This document shows, in pieces, positions 18,496 to 63,240 of a stretch of DNA of 64,000 nucleotides. Positions within the stretch are counted from its first letter, which is position 1. Each line of letters opens with the position of its first letter. The notes beneath the pieces are model-generated. The model had not been told where the DNA came from and did not search any database. It saw only the letters and a list, made by a program, of their open reading frames with translations. The translations under genes and the position numbers were made by a program. The stretch comes from an uncultured Acidobacteriota bacterium (GTDB lineage: Bacteria > Acidobacteriota > Thermoanaerobaculia > Multivoradales > UBA5704), in the NCBI GenBank assembly GCA_963755825.1, contig CAVWLA010000003.1:1088940-1152939 (forward strand), read 5' to 3'.

Positions 18496-20757
18496 ATGTC
18501 TCCTCGCCCTGCCGTGCCCGCTCCGACCTCACCCTCCCGAGGCGCTCTCGGAATCGCCCTCGCCCTCGTCGTCGGCGCCGCCGGCGCCGGCCTGGCGCGC
18601 GCCGACTGGCCGTCCTGGCGCGGGCCGCGGCAGGACGGCGTCGCCGCCGATCAGAACCTGATCTCGAGCTGGTCGCCGGCGGGCAAGAACCTGGCGTGGC
18701 GGGCCGACCTCGTCGGCCGCTCGACGCCGGTAGTCTTCGCCGGCCGGGTGTGCGCCACCGGCCGCGCCGGCAGCGGCCTCGACCGCCAGGAGACGGTCGC
18801 CTGCTTCGACGCCGCGAGCGGCAAGAAGCTGTGGGAGCGCCGGCTCGACATCTATCTCACCGCGGTGCCGTTCAGCCGCGTCGGCTGGGGGAACCTGGCG
18901 GCCGATCCGGAGAGCGGCGACATCTACGACCTGGGCGTCGGCGGCCTCCTCGTCTGCTTCAGCCGCGACGGCGACATCCGCTGGTGGCGGTCGTTGACCG
19001 AGGAGTTCGGCCTGATCTCCGGCGTCGGCGGCCGCACCCACTCGCCGCTGGTCGACGAGAACCGCCTCATCGTCAGCTTCGTCAGCATCGGCTGGGGCGA
19101 CCAGGGGCCGCCGCGCCACCGCACCTACGCCTTCGACAAGAAGAGCGGCGAGCTGCTGTGGGTCGCGGCGCCCGGCGAGCTGCCGCAGGACTTCAACACC
19201 CAGACGACACCGGTGGCGGCGGTCATCGGCGGCCAGCGCCTGCTCATCGAGGGCGAAGCCGACGGCTGGGTGCACGCCATCCAGGCGCGCACCGGCGAGC
19301 GGGTCTGGCGCTACCACCTGAGCAAGGGAGCCCTCAACAACACCGTCACCGTGCACGGCGACGAGATCTTCGCCAGCCACGGCGAGGAGAACTTCGACAG
19401 CGGCGCGCAGGGGCGCGTGGTGGCGATCGACGGCCGCGGCAGCGGCGACGTCACCAAGACGCACGAAACCTGGCGCAACGACGACGTGGTGGCGAGCTTC
19501 TCGACCCCGCTCTACCACGACGGCCTGCTCTACCTGGTCGACAACTCCTCGAGCCTCGCCTGCCTCGACGCGGCGAGCGGCAAGATCCTGTGGCGGAAGA
19601 AGATCGGCCGCATCGGCAAGGCCTCGCCGGTGTGGGGCGACGGCAAGCTCTACGTGCCGGAGGCGACCGGCACCTTCACCATCCTCAAGCCCAGCCGCAG
19701 CGGCGCCGAGGTGCTCGACCGCGAGGAGATCCGCCTCGCCGACGGCAGCCGCCCGGCCGAGATCTACTTCTCGCCGGCGATCGCCTACGGCCGCATCTTC
19801 CTGTCGACCGAGGGCGGCCTGTTCAGCCTCGGCGACCGCGCGGCCGGCCTGCGCCCCGACGCCGAGCCGTCGGCCGGCTACCCCGCCGAGAGCGCCGAGA
19901 CGCCGGCGAGCGCCGGCCCCCCGGCCGTCCTCCACGTCGAGCCGGCGGAGGTGATGATCCACCCCGGCGACTCGGTGCGCTTCCGGCTCGCCGCCTTTGA
20001 CGCTCACGGCCGCGCCCTGCCGGCGCCGGCGAGCGCCGCCTGGACCCTCCGCGGCCTCGCCGGCACGGTCGCCGCCGACGGCACCTTCGCCGCCACCCCC
20101 GGCCGCGCCTTCTCGACCGGAGCGGTCGCCGCCGCGGCGGGCGGCCTGCAGGCGGTCGCCCGCGTCCGCGTCGTCCCCGACCTCCCCTGGCAGGAGGACT
20201 TCGAGTCGATCGCGCCCGGCCAGGCGCCCGCCGGCTGGGTCGGCGCGCCCGGCAAGTTCGCCGTCCAGGCGACCGCCGACGGCAAGGTGCTGGTCAAGCC
20301 GCCGGCGCAGCGCGGCCTCGATCGCTCGAACCTCTACATCGGGCAGCCGACGCTGCACGACTACACCGTCGCCGCCGATCTCCTCGGCACCCAGGCGCCC
20401 GAGAAGGCCGTGCCGCGGCCGGACATGGGCCTCATCGCGAGCGGCTACGTCCTCGACCTGCAGGGCATCCACCAGCGCCTGCAGGTGCGCGCCTGGGACA
20501 CCGAGCTGCGGCTGATGGAGCAGACCGATTTTCCCTGGGACGCCAACACCTGGTACACCATGAAGCTCGCGGTCGACACCCGCGGCAAGGAGGGGCTCAT
20601 CCGCGCCAAGGTCTGGCGCCGCGGCGAGCCCGAGCCCGCCGCCTGGACGCTCACCGCCCACGATCCGCACCCGGTGCGCCAGGGCAGCCCCGGGCTCTAC
20701 GGCTACTCGCCGGCCGAGATCCGCTTCGACAACCTGAAAGTGACGGCCAACCCGTGA
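18496..20757 (+). CDS. Secreted PQQ-like beta-propeller repeat protein (BamB-like) with a roughly 300-aa C-terminal non-propeller domain
   Basis: Signal peptide, N-terminal ADWPSWRGPRQDG, repeated 'tgk.lW' blades (ASGKKLWERRL, KSGELLWVAA, RTGERVWRYH, ASGKILWRKK). The C-terminal ~300 aa are Ala-rich and non-repetitive. Confidence 0.8.
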   Translation: MSPRPAVPAPTSPSRGALGIALALVVGAAGAGLARADWPSWRGPRQDGVAADQNLISSWSPAGKNLAWRADLVGRSTPVVFAGRVCATGRAGSGLDRQETVACFDAASGKKLWERRLDIYLTAVPFSRVGWGNLAADPESGDIYDLGVGGLLVCFSRDGDIRWWRSLTEEFGLISGVGGRTHSPLVDENRLIVSFVSIGWGDQGPPRHRTYAFDKKSGELLWVAAPGELPQDFNTQTTPVAAVIGGQRLLIEGEADGWVHAIQARTGERVWRYHLSKGALNNTVTVHGDEIFASHGEENFDSGAQGRVVAIDGRGSGDVTKTHETWRNDDVVASFSTPLYHDGLLYLVDNSSSLACLDAASGKILWRKKIGRIGKASPVWGDGKLYVPEATGTFTILKPSRSGAEVLDREEIRLADGSRPAEIYFSPAIAYGRIFLSTEGGLFSLGDRAAGLRPDAEPSAGYPAESAETPASAGPPAVLHVEPAEVMIHPGDSVRFRLAAFDAHGRALPAPASAAWTLRGLAGTVAADGTFAATPGRAFSTGAVAAAAGGLQAVARVRVVPDLPWQEDFESIAPGQAPAGWVGAPGKFAVQATADGKVLVKPPAQRGLDRSNLYIGQPTLHDYTVAADLLGTQAPEKAVPRPDMGLIASGYVLDLQGIHQRLQVRAWDTELRLMEQTDFPWDANTWYTMKLAVDTRGKEGLIRAKVWRRGEPEPAAWTLTAHDPHPVRQGSPGLYGYSPAEIRFDNLKVTANP

Positions 20758-22226
20758 CGACGAGGCCGCGAGCCGCGCTCCTCCTCTCCCTCCTGCTGGC
20801 GGCGGCGAGCGCCGCCGCCGGCGATCCGCCCGCCGACCACGGAATGTTCGGCGGCACCCCATCCCGCAACATGGCGTCGGACGAGAAGGGGCTCCCCACC
20901 CGCTTCGACCCGGCGACGGGCTTGAACATCAAGTGGGCGGTGGACCTCGGCTCGCAGAGCTACGGCGGCCCGGTGGTCGCCGGCGGCAAGGTCTTCGTGG
21001 GCACCAACAACGAGGGGCACAAGAACCCCAAGATCGTCGGCGATCGCGGCGTCATCATGGCCTTCGACGCCGCCGACGGCCGCTTCCTCTGGCAGGCCAC
21101 CCACGACAAGCTGAGCGCCGGCAAGGTCAACGACTGGCCGCTGCAGGGCATCTGCTCGACGCCGGCGATCGAGGGCGACCGCCTCTACTACGTCTCCAAC
21201 CGCGACGAGCTGATCTGCGCCGACACCGAGGGCTTCCGCGACGGCAAGAACGACGGTCCCTTCACCGCCGAGACCGACGCCGGCGAGACCGGCGCCGACT
21301 TCATCTGGAAGCTCGACCTCATCAGCACCTTCCACGTCTATCCCCACAACCAGTCGGCGAGCAGCCCGCTGGTGATCGGCGACCTCGTCTACATCGTCAC
21401 CGGCAACGGCGTCGACGAGGGGCACATCAACGTCCCGTCGCCCCAGGCGCCGAGCTTCATCGCCGTCGACAAGGCGACCGGCAAGGTGGCATGGACGAGC
21501 GCGCTGCCCGGCGAGCACATCCTCCACGGCCAGTGGTCGAGCCCGTCGTACGGCGTCCTCGACGGCCGGCCGCAGGTGCTCTTCGGCGGCGGCGACGGCT
21601 GGCTCTACGCCCTCGAGCCGAAGACCGGCAAGCTGCTCTGGAAGTTCAACTGCAATCCCAAGGACGCCGTCTACACGATCGGTCCCGGCTCGACCAAAAA
21701 CAACATCATGGCGATGCCGGTCATCCTGGGCGACATGGTCTACATCGCGGTCGGCGAGGACCCCGAGCACGGCGAGGGGATCGGCCACCTCTGGGCGCTG
21801 CGCCCGCGCGGCCTCGGCGACCTCACCGACAAGGCGGTGGTCTGGCATCGCGACGGCGAGGCGTTCCATCGCAGCCTGTCGACGGTCGCCGTCGCCGACG
21901 GCCTGCTCTTCACCGCCGACTTCTCCGGCTATGTCTACTGCCTCGACGCCGCCACCGGCCAGCTCTATTGGATCTACAACTCCTTCGGCGCCATCTGGGG
22001 CTCGCCGATGGTCGCCGACGGCAAGGTCTACATCGGCAACGAGGACGGCGACGTCGCCGTGCTGCGCGCGGCGCGCAAGCTCGAGGTGCTCCACAAAGTC
22101 AACATGGGGAGCGCCGTCTACAGCACCGTGGTGGCGAAGAAGGGCGTCCTCTACATCACCGCGCGGTCGAAGCTCTTCGCCATCGCCGAGGGGATCCCGG
22201 CGCACCCCGCGGCTCCGCCGCACTAG
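20754..22226 (+). CDS. Secreted PQQ-like beta-propeller repeat protein (BamB-like); paralog of the gene at 49929
   Basis: Signal peptide, GGKVFVGTNNEG, repeated blades (ADGRFLWQA, ATGKVAWTS, KTGKLLWKF, ATGQLYWIY). ATGA overlap with the upstream gene. Confidence 0.8.
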   Translation: MTTRPRAALLLSLLLAAASAAAGDPPADHGMFGGTPSRNMASDEKGLPTRFDPATGLNIKWAVDLGSQSYGGPVVAGGKVFVGTNNEGHKNPKIVGDRGVIMAFDAADGRFLWQATHDKLSAGKVNDWPLQGICSTPAIEGDRLYYVSNRDELICADTEGFRDGKNDGPFTAETDAGETGADFIWKLDLISTFHVYPHNQSASSPLVIGDLVYIVTGNGVDEGHINVPSPQAPSFIAVDKATGKVAWTSALPGEHILHGQWSSPSYGVLDGRPQVLFGGGDGWLYALEPKTGKLLWKFNCNPKDAVYTIGPGSTKNNIMAMPVILGDMVYIAVGEDPEHGEGIGHLWALRPRGLGDLTDKAVVWHRDGEAFHRSLSTVAVADGLLFTADFSGYVYCLDAATGQLYWIYNSFGAIWGSPMVADGKVYIGNEDGDVAVLRAARKLEVLHKVNMGSAVYSTVVAKKGVLYITARSKLFAIAEGIPAHPAAPPH

Positions 22227-24868: not shown

Positions 24869-26167
24869 GTGTCGCCTGCGTCCAGTCTCCGATCCCCGGC
24901 GCCGCGGCGTTCGCCGAGGTGGTACCGGAGCGCCCTCGCGACGCTCCTCGCCGCCGGGACGCTCTCCGCGGCGCTCGCCCGCGCCGCCGACTGGCCGCAG
25001 TTCCGCGGCCCGCGGCGCGATGGCATCTCGAGCGAGACGCCGCTCCTCAAGAGCTGGCCGGAGAGCGGACCGCGGGTGCTCTGGAAGGTGCCGCTCGGCG
25101 AGGGCTTCTCCCACCTGACCGTCGTCGGCGACCGCCTCTACACCCTCTACGGGAGCGGCGGCGACGAGCTGCTCGCCGGCTTCGACGCCGCCACCGGCCG
25201 CCGCCTGTGGGCGACGCGGCTCGACGCCAAGCTCGACAACGATCAGGGCAACGGTCCGCGCGCCACCCCCACCTACGACGGCGGCCTGCTCTTCGCGCTC
25301 GGCGCCAAGGGCCGCCTGCTGGCGGCCGACGCCGCCACCGGCAGGACGGTCTGGCAGCACGACCTGGCGCGCGAGTTCGAGGCGCAGAGCCCGACCTGGG
25401 GCATCTCCAGCTCGCCGCTCGTCGAGGAGAAGCTGCTGCTCGTCGCCGTCGGCGGCACTCACGGCCGCTCGCTGATGGCCTTCGACAAGCGGGACGGCCG
25501 CGTCGCCTGGGCGGCGCAGGACGACCCGGCGGGCTACGCCGCCCCCATCGCCTTCACCGCCGCCAACCACCGGCAGGCCGTCTTCCTCACCGCCAAGTCG
25601 CTCCTCGCGGTGGCGCCCGGCGACGGCCGGCTGCTCTGGCGGACCCCCTGGGAAACCTCGCTCGACGCCAACGCCGCGACGCCGATCTTCCTCGCCCCCG
25701 ACCGCGTCTTCGTCTCCTCGGGATTCGACACCGGCGCCGCGGTCTTCCGGCTGCGCAGCGATGCCGCGGGCGGCGTCGCCCTCGAGACGGTGTGGAAGAG
25801 CCGCGTGCTGAAGAACCAGTTCAGCTCGTCGGTCCTCGACGGCGACTTCCTCTACGGCTTCGACAACGGCACCCTGAAGTGCGTCGACGCCCGCACCGGC
25901 GCCGAGAGGTGGAAGCAGCGCGGGCTGGGGATCGGCTCGCTGATCCTCGCCGACGGCGTCCTGGTGATCCTCTCCGACAGCGGCCGCCTGGTGCTCGCCG
26001 ACGTCACCCCCGAGAGCTACGTCGAGCGCGCCAGCTTCCAGGCGATGAGCGGGCGCTGCTGGACGGCGCCGAGCCTCGCCGACGGCGTCCTCTACCTGCG
26101 CAACGAGAGCATCATGCTGGCGCTCTCGCTGCGCCCTTCTCCCAAGGGAGATCCCAAGGGTGCTTGA
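24869..26167 (+). CDS. Secreted PQQ-like beta-propeller repeat protein (BamB-like); paralog of the gene at 47244
   Basis: ADWPQFRGPRRDG N-terminus and blades (ATGRRLWATR, ATGRTVWQHD, RDGRVAWAAQ, GDGRLLWRTPW, RTGAERWKQR). Confidence 0.8.
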   Translation: MSPASSLRSPAPRRSPRWYRSALATLLAAGTLSAALARAADWPQFRGPRRDGISSETPLLKSWPESGPRVLWKVPLGEGFSHLTVVGDRLYTLYGSGGDELLAGFDAATGRRLWATRLDAKLDNDQGNGPRATPTYDGGLLFALGAKGRLLAADAATGRTVWQHDLAREFEAQSPTWGISSSPLVEEKLLLVAVGGTHGRSLMAFDKRDGRVAWAAQDDPAGYAAPIAFTAANHRQAVFLTAKSLLAVAPGDGRLLWRTPWETSLDANAATPIFLAPDRVFVSSGFDTGAAVFRLRSDAAGGVALETVWKSRVLKNQFSSSVLDGDFLYGFDNGTLKCVDARTGAERWKQRGLGIGSLILADGVLVILSDSGRLVLADVTPESYVERASFQAMSGRCWTAPSLADGVLYLRNESIMLALSLRPSPKGDPKGA

Positions 26168-47091: not shown

Positions 47092-47140
47092 GAGAGTTGG
47101 CGGCGGATTCGCCCCACGAGACGGGGCGATCGCCTGGCGA

Positions 47141-47193
47141 GATCATCCTGAGCGCAGCTTCCGGTCGAGATCCTTCGCTGCGCTCAGGATGAC
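47141..47193. repeat. Short palindromic element CATCCTGAGCGCAGC...GCTGCGCTCAGGATG, same family as the 117-bp palindrome at 61488
   Basis: The inverted repeat is read from the sequence and shares the core GATCCTTCGCTGCGCTCAGGATGAC with the 61.5-kb element. Confidence 0.6.
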
Positions 47194-47243
47194 CATTCCC
47201 TCGGCCTCGCGGGACGGAACCGCCGTGGGCAGCCCTCTCAGTC

Positions 47244-48548
47244 TCAGTGCGGGCGAGGAGTCGCCGCCGGCGCGCGCAGATCGAGGGCGACCATGGCGTC
47301 CTCGTTGCGCAGATAGAGGCGGCCGCCGGAGAGGGTCGGCGCCGTCCAGGACTTGCCCGTCAGCACCTGCGCCCGCGCCTGCTCGCGGTAGGCCGCGGGG
47401 GTCGGCTCGACGAGCAGCAGGGCGCCGGCGTCGGAGAGGACGATGAGGTGTCCGTCGGCGAGGATCAGCGAGCCCTGGCCGAGGCCGCGCTGCTTCCACT
47501 TCTCCTCGCCGGTGTTGACGTCGACGCACTTGAAGGTGGCGTTGTCGAAGCCGTAGAGGTAGCCGCCGGCGAGCAGCGACGAGCTGAACTGGTTCTTCAT
47601 CACCCGGCTCCGCCACACCTCCTCGGTCTCCAGGCGCGGGCCGCGGGCCCTGATCCGGTAGACCGCGGCGCCGGTGTCGTAGCCCGAGGAGACGTAGACC
47701 CGGTCGGGCGGCACGAAGATCGGCGTCGAGGCGTTGACGTCGAAGGTGGTCTGCCAGGGCACCCGCCAGAGCAGCCGGCCATCGGACGGCGCCACCGCCG
47801 CCAGCGAGGAGGCGGTGAGGAAGACCACCTGGCGCACGCCGGCCGCGGTGAGCGCGATCGGCGCCGCGTAGCTGGGGCGGTCGTCGAGCGAGGTCCAGGC
47901 CAGCCGCCCGCTCTTCTTGTCGAAGGCGGCGATCGTCCGGTTGCCGTTGCCGCCGGCCTCGACGAGGAGGAGCTCGCCCTCGACCAGGGGCGAGGTGGCG
48001 ATCCCCCAGTTCGGCGACTCCGCACCGATCTCCTGGCGCAGGTCGTGGCGCCACACCTCGCGGCCGCTCTTGGCGTCGAGCGCGTAGAGCTTGCCCTGCG
48101 AGCTCCAGGCGTAGACCATGCCGCCGTCGACGGTCGGCGTCGAGCGCGGCCCGTTCCCCATGTCGTTCATCAGCATGTCGCCGGCGCGGAAGTGCCAGAG
48201 CGTCCTGCCGGTGACGGCGTCCAGGCAGAGCAGGATCTCGTCCCGCCCCCGGCCCACCAGGGTGTAGAGGCGCCCGTCGGCGACGGCGATGTGGGAGTAG
48301 CCCTCGCCGGCGGGGACGCGCCAGACGACCGGCGGTCCGGCGGCCGGCCAGCTCTTGAGCAGCCCGGTCTCGGCCGAGACGCCGTCCCGATGGAGGCCGC
48401 GGAACTGCGGCCAGTCGGCCGCCCAGACGGCACCGAGCGCGCCCGCGCCGAGCGTACAGAGGACGACGAGAGCCGAGAACGCACCGGCGGCGGGACGCGG
48501 CCGGCGAGGTGATGCGGACCGTACGCTCCGTCGCGCCATGGCACTCAT
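47244..48548 (-). CDS. Secreted PQQ-like beta-propeller repeat protein (BamB-like); paralog of the gene at 24869
   Basis: Trimmed from the 853-aa ORF to MSAMARRSVRS... The signal peptide is followed by ADWPQFRGLHRDG, and the protein is roughly 55-60% identical by eye to the 24869 gene. Confidence 0.8.
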   Translation of the reverse strand: MSAMARRSVRSASPRRPRPAAGAFSALVVLCTLGAGALGAVWAADWPQFRGLHRDGVSAETGLLKSWPAAGPPVVWRVPAGEGYSHIAVADGRLYTLVGRGRDEILLCLDAVTGRTLWHFRAGDMLMNDMGNGPRSTPTVDGGMVYAWSSQGKLYALDAKSGREVWRHDLRQEIGAESPNWGIATSPLVEGELLLVEAGGNGNRTIAAFDKKSGRLAWTSLDDRPSYAAPIALTAAGVRQVVFLTASSLAAVAPSDGRLLWRVPWQTTFDVNASTPIFVPPDRVYVSSGYDTGAAVYRIRARGPRLETEEVWRSRVMKNQFSSSLLAGGYLYGFDNATFKCVDVNTGEEKWKQRGLGQGSLILADGHLIVLSDAGALLLVEPTPAAYREQARAQVLTGKSWTAPTLSGGRLYLRNEDAMVALDLRAPAATPRPH

Positions 48549-48571
48549 TCCTCTCTCCTCGCGACCGCCGC

Positions 48572-49750
48572 CTAGGGGCGCGGCGCGGCGAAACAGTAGA
48601 GCAGGCCGTCGGTGGTGCCGAGGACGAGCTTGCCGTCCGCATAGGCGGGAGAGGCCTCGATCGGCGTCCCCGTCGAGAACTGCCAGACGGGGTTGCCGGT
48701 GGCGCTGTCGAGCGCCAGGACCTCGCCGCCCTTGGTCGCCACCAGCACCCGCTCGCCGACCAGGACCGGTGAGGAATCTACCACCGTGCGCGAGGCGAAG
48801 CTCCAGCGGCTGGCGCCGGTGCGCGGGTCGAGCCCGTGCACTTCCTTGTCGCGGCCGCCGACGACGAGGATCTTGGCATCGACCGCGGCCGAGGAGTAGA
48901 ACGGCAGCTTGCGGGCCGGGTTCTCGTAGCGCCAGAGGACCTTGCCGGTCGCCAGGTCGATCGCCAGCTCCTGGTTCTCGAAGGTGCCGAGGTAGATCCT
49001 GCCGTCGGCGACCGCCGGGCTCGCCCCTATGTAGCCGCCGAGCTGGACCTTCCACACCGGCGCGCCGCCGCGCGCCTTGAAGCGCCGCAGGTAGCCGTCG
49101 CAGCCGGCGACGATCACCGCGTCGCCGGCGACCGCCGGGCTGGCGTGCACGTAGCCCTCGGTCGTCGCCTTCCAGCGCGGCTGCCCGGTCTCCGGCGACA
49201 GGCAGTAGAGGGTCTGGTCGTAGGAGCCGAAGAGCACACAGCCGGGGGCGAAATTGGCCGACGAGGTGATGCCGGCGCCGGCATGGAAGGTCCAGCGGCG
49301 CTTGCCGCTCGCCGCCTCGACGGCATGGAAGACGCCGGTCTCGTCGCCGAAGTAGACGACGCCGCCGGCGACCGCCGGCGACGACTTGATCTCGCCCTCC
49401 GCCTTGTACTTCCAGCGCAGGGCGCCGCTCGCCAGGTCGACGGCGTAGAGCTCGCCGTCGAGCCCGCCGACGTAGACCGTGCCGGCGGCGATGGCGGCGG
49501 TCGAGGCGATGCCCTCGCCGACGCGGAAGGTCCACAGCGGCTGGAGATTCGCCGGCAGCTCGCCGGCGGCGCGGCCGGTGAGAGCGGCGTCGCCGCGGAA
49601 GCTCGCCCAGCCGCCTGCCGCCGCCGGGCGCGCCGCCGGCGCCGCCGCTCCCAGCGCCGCCGAGATCCCGACGACGAGAGCGGCGAGAGCGGCGAGGAGG
49701 CCGCGACCTCTCCGCCTGGTGGCGAGCCGTTCGCTTGAAAGGTGGCGCAT
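48572..49750 (-). CDS. Secreted PQQ-repeat beta-propeller protein
   Basis: Trimmed to MRHLSSERL... Signal peptide, then classic PQQ repeats (LYAVDLASGALRWKY, FHAVEAASGKRRWTF, LYCLSPETGQPRWKA, LAIDLATGKVLWRY, LALDSATGNPVWQF). 23-nt gap to the downstream paralog. Confidence 0.8.
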   Translation of the reverse strand: MRHLSSERLATRRRGRGLLAALAALVVGISAALGAAAPAARPAAAGGWASFRGDAALTGRAAGELPANLQPLWTFRVGEGIASTAAIAAGTVYVGGLDGELYAVDLASGALRWKYKAEGEIKSSPAVAGGVVYFGDETGVFHAVEAASGKRRWTFHAGAGITSSANFAPGCVLFGSYDQTLYCLSPETGQPRWKATTEGYVHASPAVAGDAVIVAGCDGYLRRFKARGGAPVWKVQLGGYIGASPAVADGRIYLGTFENQELAIDLATGKVLWRYENPARKLPFYSSAAVDAKILVVGGRDKEVHGLDPRTGASRWSFASRTVVDSSPVLVGERVLVATKGGEVLALDSATGNPVWQFSTGTPIEASPAYADGKLVLGTTDGLLYCFAAPRP

Positions 49751-49928
49751 GCGCTGTGGCGAGCTCCTCGGCGGCGAGATCGCACGCCTCGGAGCCCGTA
49801 CGCAACTATACCCATGCAGGGGCCACTCATGGCGCGCGGCGTGCCATCCGGCCGCCGCGCGGGCATCGAGCCAAGGGGCCGGATGGTATGCTCCGCGCGC
49901 CATTTCTCGACCAACTCGTGGTGCCGGC

Positions 49929-51335
49929 ATGAACCCGTTCCTGCGCTCGATCTCCGTCGCGCTGCTGGCGCTCCTCGCCGCCCCTGCCTCGCCGCAGGGC
50001 GCCGACTGGCCGATGTGGGGCGGCACGCCGCGGCGCAACATGGTCTCCGCGGCGACCGGCCTGCCGACCGCCTGGAACGTGGAGACGAATCAGGGCATCC
50101 GCTGGCGCGCCGCGCTCGGCTCGGAGACCAACGGCTCGCCGGTCGTCGCCGGCGGCAAGGTCTTCGTCGGCACCAACAACAACCATCCGCGCAATGCCGC
50201 GATCGCCGGCGACCGCTCGGTCCTCATGGCCTTCCGCGCCGCCGACGGCGGGTTCCTCTGGCAGGCGGTCTCCGACAAGCTGACCGCCAATCGCGACTGG
50301 CCGCTCTCCGGCATCTGCTCGTCGCCGCTGGTCGAGGGCAATCGCCTCTACTACATGACCAACCGCGCCGAGCTCGTCGCCCTCGACACCGAGGGCTTCC
50401 TCGACCACACGAACGACGGCCCCTTCACCGCCGAGAGCCGCACCGGGCCGACCGACGCCGACGTCGTCTGGAAGCTCGACATGGCGGCCGAGCTCGGCGT
50501 CGTGCCGCACTACCAGGCGGCGAGCTCGCCCGCCGTGTGGGGCGACCTGCTCTTCGTCAACACCTCGAACGGCATCGGCGAGAAGGGTGCGGTCGCCAAC
50601 CCCCGCGCGCCGAGCTTCGTGGCGGTCAACAAGAAGACCGGCAGGGTGGTGTGGTCCGACGCCTCCCCCGCCGCGGCGATCCAGGACGGCCAGTGGTCGT
50701 CGCCGGCGGTGAGCGTCGTCGGCGGCGTCGCCCAGGCCCTCTTCGCCGGCGGCGACGGCTGGCTCTACAGCTTCGAGGCGGCGACCGGCAAGCCGCTGTG
50801 GAAGCTCGACGCCAACGCCGGCGCCGCGCCCGACGCCCGCGGCTTCTTCGTCTCGACGCCGGTCTTCGACGGCGACCGCGTCTACGTCGGCCTCGGCCAG
50901 GACCCGCAGGAGGGTCCCAAGCCGGGCCGCTTCTTCGCCATCGATGCCCGCCAGCGCGGCGACATCACGAAGACCGGCGTCCTCTGGCGCTACGACAAGC
51001 TGAGCCGCACGATCTCGACCGCCGCCGCCGCCGACGGCCTGGTCTACATCGCCGACTTCCGCGGCATCCTCCACTGCCTGGCGGCCGACACCGGCCTGCC
51101 GCTGTGGACCTACGACACCTACGCCGCGGTCTGGGGCTCGCCCCTCCTCGCCGACGGCAAGGTCTACGTGGCGAACGAGGACGGCGACGTCACCATCCTC
51201 GCCGCCGGGCGGACGCTCAGGAAGATCGCCCAGATCCAGATGGGGCACGCCGTCTACACCACCCCGGTGCCGGCCGGCGGCACCCTCTACATCGCCACCA
51301 AGCAGGAGCTGGTGGCGGTCGGCGCCGGCAAATGA
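49929..51335 (+). CDS. Secreted PQQ-like beta-propeller repeat protein (BamB-like); paralog of the gene at 20754
   Basis: Trimmed to MNPFLRSISVALLALLAAPASPQGADWPMWGG. GGKVFVGTNNNHPRN and blades (ADGGFLWQA, KTGRVVWSD, ATGKPLWKL, DTGLPLWTY). Confidence 0.8.
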   Translation: MNPFLRSISVALLALLAAPASPQGADWPMWGGTPRRNMVSAATGLPTAWNVETNQGIRWRAALGSETNGSPVVAGGKVFVGTNNNHPRNAAIAGDRSVLMAFRAADGGFLWQAVSDKLTANRDWPLSGICSSPLVEGNRLYYMTNRAELVALDTEGFLDHTNDGPFTAESRTGPTDADVVWKLDMAAELGVVPHYQAASSPAVWGDLLFVNTSNGIGEKGAVANPRAPSFVAVNKKTGRVVWSDASPAAAIQDGQWSSPAVSVVGGVAQALFAGGDGWLYSFEAATGKPLWKLDANAGAAPDARGFFVSTPVFDGDRVYVGLGQDPQEGPKPGRFFAIDARQRGDITKTGVLWRYDKLSRTISTAAAADGLVYIADFRGILHCLAADTGLPLWTYDTYAAVWGSPLLADGKVYVANEDGDVTILAAGRTLRKIAQIQMGHAVYTTPVPAGGTLYIATKQELVAVGAGK

Positions 51336-58132: not shown

Positions 58133-58633
58133 TCAGTGTGCCGCCGGGGTGGCGGGATAGCTGACCAGGTAGAACTGGTTGCCGTAGAGATCCTTGAACA
58201 TCGCCTGGGTGCCGTAGAACTGCTTGCCGGGCATCTGAGTGAAGACGACGCCGCGCGCCTTGAGAGTCTGGTACGACCGCTCGCAGTCGTCGGTCGCGAA
58301 GACCCAGGCGGTGCTCTTGCCGACCATCCCCTCCTGGCCCTTCTCCGCCTTCTCGAGGACGATCTCGGGATCGCCCTTCCCCGGCGGCACCAGGGTCAGC
58401 CAGCGGAAGCCGCCGGAGGAGATGTCCACCTTCTTCTCGAGGCCGAGCTTCTCGGTGTACCACTTGAGCGCCTCGTCCTGATCCTTGACCAGGATCACGA
58501 CGGAGGAGATCCCGGTGATGGCGGGAGCCGCCGTGTCGGCGCCGACCGGCGCCGACAGCATCGGGAGCAGCGGGAGCAGCATGGCGCCGACGAGGAGCAG
58601 GCTCAGCGGGAAGCGCGAGGACGTGCGTCGCAT
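58133..58633 (-). CDS. Secreted VOC-family (glyoxalase/bleomycin-resistance fold) protein; lower GC
   Basis: Signal peptide. Paired beta-alpha-beta-beta-beta modules (ISSVVILVKDQDEALKWYTEKLGL ... STAWVFATDDCERSYQTLKARGV). Confidence 0.65.
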   Translation of the reverse strand: MRRTSSRFPLSLLLVGAMLLPLLPMLSAPVGADTAAPAITGISSVVILVKDQDEALKWYTEKLGLEKKVDISSGGFRWLTLVPPGKGDPEIVLEKAEKGQEGMVGKSTAWVFATDDCERSYQTLKARGVVFTQMPGKQFYGTQAMFKDLYGNQFYLVSYPATPAAH

Positions 58634-58789
58634 GGAGTTCTCCTAAAAGTCGAGAAGGCCGTCAAAGGAATCAACGGGACGATTCCGGGTACAAGTACAG
58701 GAGCGCGTGGGGACCTGTCAAGGGATGTCGAGCCAGGCCAGGATACGGCACAATGAAGTGGGTCAGCGGATACAGAAAGCTCACTCCAG

Positions 58790-60686: not shown

Positions 60687-61418
60687 CTAGCGAGAATCCG
60701 GCACCGCGGCCTGCTGCGGGTAGTGGATCGGCTCCTCGGGGTCGCGGTGCCAGTCGTACTCGGCGCCGATGGCTGCCGTTTCGGCGATGGCGCGGCCGGC
60801 GAGGCGCTTGACGAGATAGAACGCCATGTCGGTGCCGGCGGAGACGCCGGCGGAGGTGACATAGCGGCCGGCGTCGACCCAGCGCGCGACGTTGTCCCAC
60901 TGAACCCGCGGACCGAAGCTGGTGACCCACGCGAAGGCCTCGTGATTCGTCGCCGCCGGCCTGCCGTCGAGGAGCCCGGCGGCCGCGAGGACGGCGGCGC
61001 CGGTGCAGACGGAGGTCATCACCGCCACCCGCTCGTCCATCGCCCGCACCCACTCGAGAAGCGCCTTTCGCCCCTGCGCGGGCTCGTCGGCGAGGAGCGC
61101 GCGGGTGCCGATCCCCCCCGGGATCATCAACAGGTCGATCGTCTGCTCGAGCGCCTCGTCGCGCCAACAGTCCGGCGCCACCCGCGGACCGTTGGCGCTC
61201 TCGACCGGCGCCGGCGTCGATTCCCCCGCCTCCGCCCTCCGTTGGTTGGAGATGAGCGCCACCTCGAACGGGTACGGCGGAGCGCTCGCGTAGCTCGTGC
61301 CGATGAAGCGAGAGATGCTGAACGCCTCGACGAACCCCCATACGTCGAGCGGCTCGAAGCCGTCGAAGACGAGGATGCCGATGCGCAGCGTGCGGGGGAA
61401 ACGATCCGTGTCACTCAT
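60687..61418 (-). CDS. DJ-1/PfpI-family protein (class I glutamine-amidotransferase-like fold)
   Basis: Nucleophile elbow MTSVCTGAAVLA and IPGGIG motif. 243 aa. Confidence 0.8.
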   Translation of the reverse strand: MSDTDRFPRTLRIGILVFDGFEPLDVWGFVEAFSISRFIGTSYASAPPYPFEVALISNQRRAEAGESTPAPVESANGPRVAPDCWRDEALEQTIDLLMIPGGIGTRALLADEPAQGRKALLEWVRAMDERVAVMTSVCTGAAVLAAAGLLDGRPAATNHEAFAWVTSFGPRVQWDNVARWVDAGRYVTSAGVSAGTDMAFYLVKRLAGRAIAETAAIGAEYDWHRDPEEPIHYPQQAAVPDSR

Positions 61419-61487
61419 GGGCTACCTCCGGGTTGTCGGGTACGGCGGGTACGGCGGGCGCCGCTTGGCGTATCGATGCTCGTTCGA

Positions 61488-61604
61488 GCTGTCATCCTGA
61501 GCGAAGCGAAGGATCCGGGGGGAGGGAATGCTCCAAATAGCTGGCCTTATTGCGTTTAGATCCTTCCCCCCGCCCGGATCCTTCGCTGCGCTCAGGATGA
61601 CAGC
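61488..61604. repeat. 117-bp near-perfect palindromic (MITE-like) element: two ~40-bp arms around a ~35-bp loop
   Basis: Left arm GCTGTCATCCTGAGCGAAGCGAAGGATCCGGGGGGAGGGAA. Right arm TTCCCCCCGCCCGGATCCTTCGCTGCGCTCAGGATGACAGC. A truncated relative is at 47141-47193. Confidence 0.65.
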
Positions 61605-61658
61605 CTGGAACACTTCGCGAGAGAGCACCGCCACCGCCGATCCAGCCGTACAGCCCGC

Positions 61659-61910
61659 CTAAACTCCTCGCCGCATGCCGCGGCAGCCAGTTTAGGGCGC
61701 GGAAACTCCTCGCCGCGCGACGCGGCAGCCAGTTTCCATCACCTAAACTCCCCGCCGCGCGGCGCGGCAGCCAGTTTCCGTCGCCTAAACTCCTCGCCGC
61801 GTGCCGCGGCAGCCAGTTTTCATCACCGAAACTACCCGCCGCGCGACGCGGCAGAGAGTTTCCGTCGCCGAAACTCCTCGCCGCGCACCCGGGCGGCCAG
61901 TTTCCATCGC
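61659..61910. repeat. Tandem array of six ~42-bp units, each carrying a GCCGCG-N3-CGCGGC palindrome flanked by AAACT...AGTTT
   Basis: Units start at about 61659, 61703, 61743, 61785, 61827 and 61869. Consensus CTAAACTCCTCGCCGCGNGNCGCGGCAGCCAGTTTCCRTCRC. The units are contiguous with no unique spacers. Confidence 0.7.
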
Positions 61911-62036
61911 CGCCCCAGCTCCGCAGATTGCCCGCTCAGGCCGACAAGTCGCCGCGCCTCTCGGCCTTTCACCCGGCGCGCTCGCCCGGCGGCACGGCGT
62001 CGCCGCCGGGCGATGGTGAAGGCCCCCGCGCGCGGC

Positions 62037-63092
62037 CTAGAGACCGAGCTCGGCGGCGGCGAGGGCGGTGCCCTCGACGCGGGCGCGGATCTTCGCGAAG
62101 GCGACGTCCCGCGAGGTCGAGGTGTCGTCCGCGAAGGGGGAGAAGCCGCAGTCATCGGTCGTGCCGAGGCGGTCGAGCGGGATGAACTCCGCCGCCTCGA
62201 GGACGCGGTCGCGCACCTCCTCCGCCGTCTCGACGCGCGGCGAGAGGGGATCGATCACCCCCACGAACACCCGCTGGCCCGGCCGCGCGCAGTCGCGGAT
62301 CACCCCCAGGGACCGGCGGCGGTCCGCCTCGCTCGCCAGCTGGATGTAGAAGTTGCCCGCCTCGAGGCTGAAGAGCGCCGGGAGGAGCTCGGCGTAGTCA
62401 ACGTCGGCGCTGTGGGTCGAGTCGTGGTCGCCGCCGGGGCAGGTGTGGACGCCCAGCCGCCCGCGCTCCTCCGCCGAGAAGCGGGCGAGCACCTGGTTGT
62501 TGAGGTCGACCATGCTGCGGAGCAGCCCGCCGCTGGGGTCGAGCTTGTAGGTGAGCCGCCCCTCGGTGAAGTCGATCTGCACCGCGTGGGCGCCGCGGTC
62601 GAGGCAGGAGCGGATGTCCGCCGCCGCCTCGTCGATCAGGTCGGCGATGAACTCCTCGCGCGGGTAGCCGTCGATCCCGTCCTGCGGATAGAGGAGCGAG
62701 AGGGCCGAGGCCGAGATGACCGCCTGCTTGAGCGGCCGGTCGGTCAGCCGCCGCGCCGCGTCGAGGTACGAGCCGGCGCGCGTCACGTAGCGGAACGGCC
62801 CCGCCGTCAGGCGCGGCAGCTGGCGGGTGTGGCCGTCGGCGAAGGGGATCACGGCGCCGTCGGGCGCCAGGTTCGCGGCGCCATGGACGGGATAGGTCGC
62901 GAAGCTCGGCTTGGTCTGCTCGCCGTCGCTCAAAACCGGTGAGCCGGTCGCCGCAAAGCGCTCGAGGGTGTCGCGGAGCGCCGCCTCATAGAGCGCGGCG
63001 AGCGCCTCCGGGGCGAGCGTCGAGTCGCCCATCGCGGCGATCAGGCTCGCCGGCCGCGGGATGCTGCCGACGGGTTCGGTGGGAATGGGCAT
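62037..63092 (-). CDS. Cobalamin-independent methionine-synthase (MetE) C-terminal-domain-like / UroD-fold protein
   Basis: Trimmed to MPIPTEPVGSIPRP with RBS GAGGAG. Zn-binding-type residues in HTCPGGDHDS and DDCGFSPF resemble the MetE C-terminal His/Cys/Glu/Cys site. 351 aa. Confidence 0.65.
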   Translation of the reverse strand: MPIPTEPVGSIPRPASLIAAMGDSTLAPEALAALYEAALRDTLERFAATGSPVLSDGEQTKPSFATYPVHGAANLAPDGAVIPFADGHTRQLPRLTAGPFRYVTRAGSYLDAARRLTDRPLKQAVISASALSLLYPQDGIDGYPREEFIADLIDEAAADIRSCLDRGAHAVQIDFTEGRLTYKLDPSGGLLRSMVDLNNQVLARFSAEERGRLGVHTCPGGDHDSTHSADVDYAELLPALFSLEAGNFYIQLASEADRRRSLGVIRDCARPGQRVFVGVIDPLSPRVETAEEVRDRVLEAAEFIPLDRLGTTDDCGFSPFADDTSTSRDVAFAKIRARVEGTALAAAELGL

Positions 63093-63240
63093 GGGGATCT
63101 GCTCCTCGGTCGCTGGGTTCGCCAGAATCTTATCCCCGACGCAGCCGATCCGGGAGCGACTCCGGGCGCTCTTGGCCCCGGAATTGCTCTCACAGGTCGT
63201 GTTGGTCGACACGGACCCCTTGAGAGTGAGAGGAGGCGCG

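Follow-up and report, generated by a model that had tools for sequence, protein, structure and literature searches.

A tandem array of six 42-bp hairpin units upstream of a DJ-1/PfpI family gene in Thermoanaerobaculia (Acidobacteriota)

Introduction

In E. coli, REP/BIME elements form rows of 30–50-bp extragenic palindromic units with a conserved mismatch bulge. REPs are present in hundreds of dispersed copies in alternating Y/Z2 orientation, carry a GTAG (or CGTC) tag and are accompanied by RAYT transposases. One such row, REP325, comprises 12 palindromic units located between the tandem genes yjdM and yjdN (bioRxiv 10.64898/2026.03.23.713779). Deletion of REP325 raises the level of the downstream transcript about 10-fold and lowers that of the upstream transcript, pointing to a dual role as partial terminator and mRNA stabiliser (bioRxiv 10.64898/2026.03.23.713779). 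The array of six 42-bp units described here resembles REP325 in the form of its units, in lying between two same-strand genes and in lacking a U-tract, and the two may share a mode of action in which RNA hairpins stabilise the upstream mRNA and attenuate read-through. Unlike the REPs, however, the array is found at a single locus, with all its units head-to-tail, no consistent tag and no transposase seen in the window (the whole 64-kb stretch of DNA that was analysed).

The CGTC- and GTAG-tagged palindromic repeats offer a second point of comparison. These are likewise short stem-loops, some of them clustered, with stems that often start with A/T; the stems are continuous, at 8–9 bp for the CGTC and 5–13 bp for the GTAG type, the tag sits directly at one end, and most are arranged as head-to-head dimers (PMC3733652). 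In the array, by contrast, GTAG is limited to unit 5 (minus strand) and CGTC to the linkers of units 3 and 5, where 3 nt separate it from the stem.

Direct tandem repeats of near-equal period (43 rather than 42 bp) are found in sopC of plasmid F, which consists of 12 × 43 bp with a 16-bp inverted repeat in each copy (PMC3177203). There the inverted repeat is a contiguous 16-bp SopB site and the locus lies on a plasmid beside sopAB, whereas the array is chromosomal, has no parA or parB nearby and contains a split palindrome with arms of 5 + 6 bp and an internal mismatch block.

Minisatellites and VNTRs of the MIRU type, finally, are made up of 40–100-bp head-to-tail units in the intergenic spacers of same-strand genes, as is the array. 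The mycobacterial MIRUs occur at dozens of loci and contain mini-ORFs that abut the flanking genes. They share with the array a unit length that is a multiple of three, decayed edge copies and a probable origin by slippage; the array differs in being seen at one locus, in its strong hairpin and in not being joined to the flanking reading frames. The sequence of the repeat is novel but its kind is familiar: an intergenic minisatellite of palindromic units.

The array and its setting

The features on which the analysis rests are as follows (coordinates are those of the window).

60687–61418, minus strand: downstream gene, DJ-1/PfpI family (Pfam), 243 aa, 100% identical to P0001
61488–61604, no strand assigned: 117-bp palindrome with 50-nt arms that are 88% complementary, between the array and the DJ-1 start
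61656–61912, no strand assigned: whole array, 6.1 head-to-tail copies of consensus GAAACTCCTCGCCGCGCGCCGCGGCAGCCAGTTTCCATCGCC (Tandem Repeats Finder, repeat finding and units in register)
61660–61701, no strand assigned: unit 1, terminal and degenerate, 5+5 stem with a 5-nt loop and divergent linker AGGGCGCG
61702–61743, no strand assigned: unit 2, perfect GCCGCG-CGA-CGCGGC core, linker CCATCACC
61744–61785, no strand assigned: unit 3, CGG loop in the core, linker CCGTCGCC, T-to-C change at position 9 that gives an extra pair beside the core
61786–61827, no strand assigned: unit 4, TGC loop in the core, linker TCATCACC
61828–61869, no strand assigned: unit 5, CGA loop, four internal-loop changes
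61870–61911, no strand assigned: unit 6, terminal and degenerate, core decayed to GCCGCGCACCCGGGC
61982–62013, minus strand: perfect 12-bp inverted repeat with an 8-nt loop (repeat finding and sequence), negative in the terminator scan
62037–63092, minus strand: upstream gene, MetE-like (Pfam Meth_synt_2), 351 aa, 100% match to P0123 at the same length

Tandem Repeats Finder reported the array at 61656–61912 with a period of 42, 6.1 copies, 81% matches and a score of 316 (periods of 84 and 126 also scored), and the units are in register across 61660–61911, bearing out the original prediction of six contiguous 42-bp units. A 33-nt core gave four matches in the window at three or fewer mismatches, as against none in 100 shuffles, and a six-unit profile recovered every unit with an E-value of 1e-11 to 1e-13 but nothing below about 1.7 in the rest of the 64 kb. 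The array is thus real and far beyond chance. Candidate further units in its flanks do not rise above chance similarity.

Each unit is an imperfect hairpin. The A/T-rich lower stem of 5 bp, AAACT/AGTTT, is kept in all six units, just as had been described; above it lie a conserved 4 × 4 internal loop (a mismatch block with CCTC opposite AGCC) and a GC upper stem of 6 bp, GCCGCG/CGCGGC, closed by a 3-nt loop. GCCGC is present in every unit, while the complete upper stem is perfect in four of the six, so that the 6+6 palindrome originally ascribed to each unit holds for units 2–5 and not for unit 1 (5+5, with a 5-nt loop) or the degenerate unit 6. A linker of 9 nt, mostly CCATCACC or CCGTCGCC plus one base, completes the unit. 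Because the internal loop and the linker are asymmetric, all six units can be seen to run head-to-tail. Pairs of interior units mostly show 4–6 differences in 42 positions (86–90% identity), in keeping with the 85–90% that had been quoted, but this figure does not extend to units 4 and 5 (10/42) or to pairs that include a terminal unit (71–86%). In place of unique spacers the linkers repeat a single motif in near-identical form (CCATCACC / CCGTCGCC), and the window contains no cas genes; a CRISPR array was therefore rejected, as it had been at the outset.

The array lies within a 618-bp spacer (61419–62036) that separates two Pfam-supported minus-strand genes, and it is therefore extragenic. 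Upstream is a gene for a protein resembling cobalamin-independent methionine synthase II (MetE-like), downstream the DJ-1/PfpI gene. Reading along the minus strand, the order is MetE-like stop codon, 12-bp inverted repeat, array, 55 nt of unique sequence, 117-bp palindrome, 69 nt containing a GGAGG Shine–Dalgarno sequence (9 nt ahead of the ATG) and DJ-1 start. Between the MetE-like stop codon and the array there are 124 nt; on the other side, the array spans 241–490 bp from the DJ-1/PfpI start codon. The description of the array as sharing a 618-bp intergenic region with the 117-bp palindrome and as lying upstream of a DJ-1 gene is thus accurate, with the palindrome intervening between the array and the start codon 241 bp away.

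Two smaller features of the spacer may be mentioned. The 61982–62013 inverted repeat, which lies 24 nt past the MetE-like stop codon, between the stop and the array, and has no U-tract, could serve either as a U-less terminator or as a hairpin for processing. At 61437–61458, 19–40 bp upstream of the DJ-1 start codon and between the Shine–Dalgarno region and the large palindrome, there is a perfect 9-bp tandem repeat (CGGGTACGG × 2.4). Consensus scans of the spacer found neither sigma-70-like promoters nor canonical intrinsic terminators, and no sigma-54, ECF, attC or parS-like motif fitted in a by-eye check on which no claim rests.

The window has a G+C content of 72% and represents about 2% of the source genome. 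P0001 and P0123 are recorded on a multi-megabase (3.08-Mb) chromosome contig, and the nearest named relatives of the flanking proteins belong to Thermoanaerobaculia (Acidobacteriota). The candidate ORFs scanned with Pfam are ordinary chromosomal genes, among them genes for fatty-acid synthesis enzymes, PQQ-like beta-propellers, a TonB-dependent receptor, ABC/FtsX transporters, sugar-modifying enzymes, a glyoxalase and an S15 peptidase; none encodes ParA or ParB, an integrase, a transposase, a Cas protein, an HTH or ribbon-helix-helix protein or any other DNA-binding regulator. No tRNA and no Rfam family was detected in the 64 kb.

Searches for further copies

No second copy of the unit was found in the window, whether by a search allowing up to three mismatches or with the six-unit profile in nhmmer. 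An exact scan with a strict unit pattern drew no match from the genomes of 185,579 species (one genome per species). A looser pattern gave nine matches among metagenome contigs, all of them single perfect hairpins followed by T-runs, and these were discarded as relatives of the array, being ordinary terminators in unrelated, AT-richer DNA. Viral contigs yielded no matches for the unit and junction patterns and, in blastn searches of plasmids and phages, a chance match of 61 bp was the only hit. At the gathering threshold the array matched no Rfam family; the sub-threshold matches were to chance microRNA and snoRNA models, each about 45–90 bits under the gathering score of its family, and are typical of any long hairpin. 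Joined together, the six reading frames of the array, a query able to catch related arrays miscalled as ORFs, found no match at E-values of up to 10 in a protein search of 5.8 billion clusters. Nor did the six-unit profile find anything in fetched loci that add up to about 1 Mb, of which about 60 kb come from Thermoanaerobaculia genomes. In none of the collections searched (genomes, metagenomes, viruses, plasmids, phages, Rfam and protein) was there a match, supporting the original view that this is a new repeat family.

One rival reading takes the array to be a single cluster of a REP/BIME-type family that a RAYT transposase has mobilised and that has many dispersed copies in the rest of the source genome. 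The unit has REP-like properties, being a palindromic hairpin of about 20–50 bp with a conserved mismatch bulge and an exclusively extragenic location, and the imperfect palindromes lie between tandem genes as many BIMEs do. Against this, there is no second copy in 64 kb and none in the 185,579 species genomes, the metagenome matches are only unrelated single terminator hairpins, no consistent GTAG or CGTC end tag is present (compare PMC3733652) and the units are direct rather than alternating, with no transposase in the window. An abundant, generic REP element, which would have told against the original view, was not seen, there being no second copy in either the window, about 2% of the source genome, or public collections, and we consider a dispersed family highly improbable. 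Membership of the REP/BIME class, put forward earlier as one of three options for the array (alongside an operator array and a structured ncRNA), thus holds for hairpin and extragenic location but fails for end tag and alternating orientation. The features of a minisatellite or VNTR, head-to-tail units of 10–100 bp in an intergenic spacer, are present.

Relatives of the flanking genes

Homologues of the DJ-1 protein at 80–85% identity are found in three different neighbourhoods, none syntenic with the window. In two of the three the gene abuts the preceding gene and in the third it follows about 100 bp after it, so that these homologues have no long upstream spacer of the kind seen here. On the other side, a MetE-like protein with 97% identity is encoded on two soil-metagenome contigs (L135 and L136), where the DNA of window positions 62027–63153 is matched at 95.3% identity by L135 9879–11005 and L136 2080–3206. 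This identity extends only from 61 nt before the MetE-like start codon to 10 nt past the stop, and on both contigs the two flanks of the gene are unrelated to the window. Such a patch of near-identity, restricted to a single gene, suggests recent transfer or recombination of the MetE-like gene alone. The array is absent from L135 and L136 and from the contigs of relatives with an 88% identical MetE-like protein. Since it is missing beside the relatives of both flanking genes, the array appears to be lineage-specific and to lie at a synteny breakpoint.

Substitution pattern

Across the six units, differences from the consensus fall at 3 of 132 positions in self-complementary columns and at 25 of 120 other positions (Fisher p = 1.5e-6). 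All three stem changes are in the terminal units, which are the most diverged of the six; the 88 stem positions of the four interior units are free of changes, compared with 16 changes at 80 positions elsewhere. Decay of edge copies is usual in arrays that evolve by slippage or unequal exchange. The six units share common ancestry and so are not independent observations, and because the stems are invariant among the interior units, they provide no covariation for or against an RNA structure. The sparing of the stems could reflect selection for a hairpin or palindrome, protein binding or effects at the level of the DNA itself, such as more mutable loops or arm-to-arm correction.

This last possibility belongs to a rival account of the array, a neutral minisatellite without a function, in which replication stalled at a hairpin-prone sequence and slippage amplified it. 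The palindrome columns would then look conserved owing to the mutability of extruded loops and linkers or to correction between the arms, not to selection. Confinement to a single locus without a homologue in the collections searched, absence downstream of the 97% and 88% MetE-like relatives at what is a synteny breakpoint, and decayed edge units with mixed 42-, 84- and 126-bp periodicities (typical of unequal exchange) all agree with neutrality, as does the fact that transitions account for the differences in many variable columns. Two observations are harder to accommodate. Interior pairs differ at 10–24% of positions and yet none of the 88 stem positions has changed, which is difficult to explain without some constraint, and AAACT/AGTTT is kept in six of six units in a 72% GC genome otherwise nearly without this word (it occurs 13 times in the 64-kb window, both strands counted, and 12 of these are in the array). 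A wholly neutral array is somewhat unlikely. The notion that AAACT/AGTTT is an avoided word was discarded: it is rare, yet no outlier among AT-rich pentamers.

Sparing of the stems might also be the signature of a protein. Six palindromic dsDNA sites, one every 42 bp and on one face of the helix, could assemble a nucleoprotein complex, which would either repress or activate the DJ-1 gene or form a centromere-like site comparable to sopC of plasmid F. Head-to-tail repeats of about 42 bp with an inverted repeat in each do match the architecture of sopC (PMC3177203). Both half-sites are invariant in all units, the array is located upstream of a gene start and, by simple arithmetic, 42 bp corresponds to 4.0 turns at 10.5 bp per turn, although a unit length picked at random would come as close as 1 bp to whole turns in about 3 cases out of 10. 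The context offers little encouragement, however. None of the Pfam-scanned ORFs of the window encodes ParA, ParB, an HTH or ribbon-helix-helix protein or another DNA-binding protein, and the setting is a multi-megabase chromosome contig; of the features of a sopC-type (ParB) centromere, the tandem direct repeats with inverted repeats are present but an adjacent parA/parB (sopAB) pair is absent. As for gene regulation, the start codon is 241–490 bp away from the sites, on the far side of the 117-bp palindrome, there is no single copy of the site at other promoters in the window, and DJ-1 orthologues elsewhere lack a comparable upstream region. With no nearby regulator or partition gene in its support, the operator array suggested in the original prediction is unlikely. 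A more specialised version, in which the six phased palindromes form a dedicated platform (a chromosomal sopC-like site or an RNA that sequesters an RNA-binding protein), seems to us more unlikely still; its DNA-binding or partition-type partner would be an unrecognised protein encoded elsewhere, and the complete sparing of the interior stems would be that partner's footprint.

Folding, strand and coding potential

All six units are predicted to fold as hairpins, at -14.2 to -21.1 kcal/mol on the minus strand and -12.6 to -16.6 kcal/mol on the plus strand. The minus-strand hairpins are the more stable because a G.U pair extends the GC stem. Changes in units 3 and 5 add pairs that stack onto this extended stem on the minus strand; in unit 5, the four internal-loop changes yield U.G and C-G pairs (the two G.U pairs being possible on the minus strand only), leaving the hairpin nearly fully paired on that strand alone (-21.1 kcal/mol). 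The changes in unit 6 have the opposite strand preference, and the asymmetry as a whole derives from one shared G.U pair and changes in two units. It hints weakly that what matters is the sense transcript.

Folded whole, the array is far more stable than shuffled sequence on both strands (z = -7.2 and -6.75), although values of about -7 follow automatically from repeated palindromes. As an intrinsic terminator the array was rejected: the scan found no site, and the only U-run is UUU, 4 nt past the GC stem. The sense RNA is G-rich (plus-strand GC skew of about -0.23), unlike typical C-rich Rho entry sites.

Stable folding on both strands and conserved stems are also what would be expected of a stand-alone structured ncRNA, in which the six stem-loops titrate an RNA-binding protein in the manner of the CsrB/RsmZ sponges. 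On the minus strand, moreover, four units show GAGGAG in their internal loop, and the remaining two have a purine-rich sequence related to it. The GGA motifs are placed in the internal loop and lower stem, however, not in hairpin loops, and repeated palindromes are bound to fold well. The array is not bounded by promoter-like or terminator-like signals, no Rfam family matches it at any sensible threshold and, while conservation across a genus or more is usual for regulatory RNAs, no homologue was found in the genomes and metagenomes scanned. With neither an Rfam family nor covariation in its favour, the ncRNA put forward in the original prediction is very unlikely.

A coding role was also considered. 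The 42-bp period corresponds to 14 codons, and three reading frames run through the array without a stop, raising the idea of a repeat peptide or of small MIRU-like ORFs. Minus-strand units carry the Shine–Dalgarno-like GAGGAG 8–9 nt ahead of an AUG (e.g. METGCRVARRGV), and minus-strand ORFs of 12–40 codons begin just past these motifs. Open frames are to be expected by chance at 72% GC, however, and GC3 in the array is 57–64% by hand count, as against at least 89% in the genes of the window. The search of the 5.8-billion-cluster protein database found no match in any frame. Nor are these ORFs comparable to the mini-ORFs of MIRUs, which overlap or abut the flanking genes: they are 124 and 241 nt away from them, with GC3 that is not gene-like, and a MIRU identity was accordingly set aside. 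On the evidence of GC3 and the protein search, the array is not coding, and a repeat peptide or MIRU-like element is scarcely credible.

Origin and possible function

Taken as a whole, we tentatively regard the array as a lineage-specific, non-coding minisatellite that may act in the manner of an E. coli REP cluster. As to its origin, it very probably arose as a minisatellite through tandem amplification of a hairpin unit. A 42-bp unit would have been amplified head-to-tail to six copies by slippage or unequal exchange; the edge copies have decayed. That intergenic hairpins are prone to tandem expansion is suggested by the neighbouring palindrome family, the core of which has been tandemly amplified in other genomes (see below).

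Its effect is a separate matter. The array sits between two minus-strand genes and is thus probably transcribed on the minus strand, where it would form part of a 3'-UTR or an intercistronic RNA in which each unit folds into a stable stem-loop. By analogy with REP325, six stem-loops transcribed with the upstream gene could act as a REP/BIME does: the row of hairpins would block 3'-to-5' exonucleases, stabilising the upstream MetE-like message, and would attenuate read-through into the downstream DJ-1/PfpI gene. We consider this the most likely effect, although it is still somewhat less likely than not; transcription, strand of action and regulatory effect are all inferred. The 61982–62013 hairpin tells against a REP325-like role in that it might end the transcript ahead of the array.

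Were the REP-like reading correct, it would mean that control by rows of stem-loops can arise independently in a phylum that has been little studied, Acidobacteriota (Thermoanaerobaculia), through simple tandem amplification, with no need for the transposase-driven dispersal seen in Proteobacteria, and that the array would tune the ratio of two neighbouring transcripts. If the array is neutral, it merits an annotation note only. In practical terms, it could serve as a strain marker (VNTR), and short-read assemblies are likely to break at it.

The neighbouring 117-bp palindrome

The 117-bp palindrome is a member of a separate, very widespread hairpin family that is unrelated to the 42-bp unit. 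Its arms contain a 26-nt core, GTCATCCTGAGCG-N-AGCGAAGGATCC, which is also present at 47140–47197 in the window. An exact scan for this core identified at least 119 loci (L014–L132) in many phyla, the matches listed including Acidobacteriota, Chloroflexota, Verrucomicrobiota, Gemmatimonadota, Bacillota, Patescibacteria, Bacteroidota isolates, Alpha- and Gammaproteobacteria and Myxococcales. Among these listed matches, the family has conserved arms around a locus-specific centre (median 32 nt), and 44 of 129 arms are matched by a second arm no more than 230 nt away. The core sequence was not found in the literature searched. When the 119 loci were scanned for the 42-bp unit, none was found near any of them, and the idea that array and palindrome form one composite element was discarded. 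With a 26-nt core that is identical across many phyla, the palindrome may outrank the array in interest.

In other genomes the core is itself tandemly repeated, at L019 55–120, L041 2919–2986, L046 7297–7376 and L116 1470–1630, with periods of 22–46 bp and 3–3.6 copies.

Other observations in the window

Five ORFs for PQQ_2/BamB-like beta-propellers (18496–20757, 20754–22226, 24869–26167, 47244–49805 and 49479–51335) form an unusually dense set of paralogues for 64 kb, several of them adjoining genes for a TonB-dependent receptor, a radical-SAM enzyme and an Fe-alcohol dehydrogenase. A glyoxalase-family gene (58133–58642) lies about 2 kb from the DJ-1/PfpI gene (60687–61418). DJ-1 proteins can work as glyoxalase III, and the two genes may thus both serve in the detoxification of methylglyoxal.
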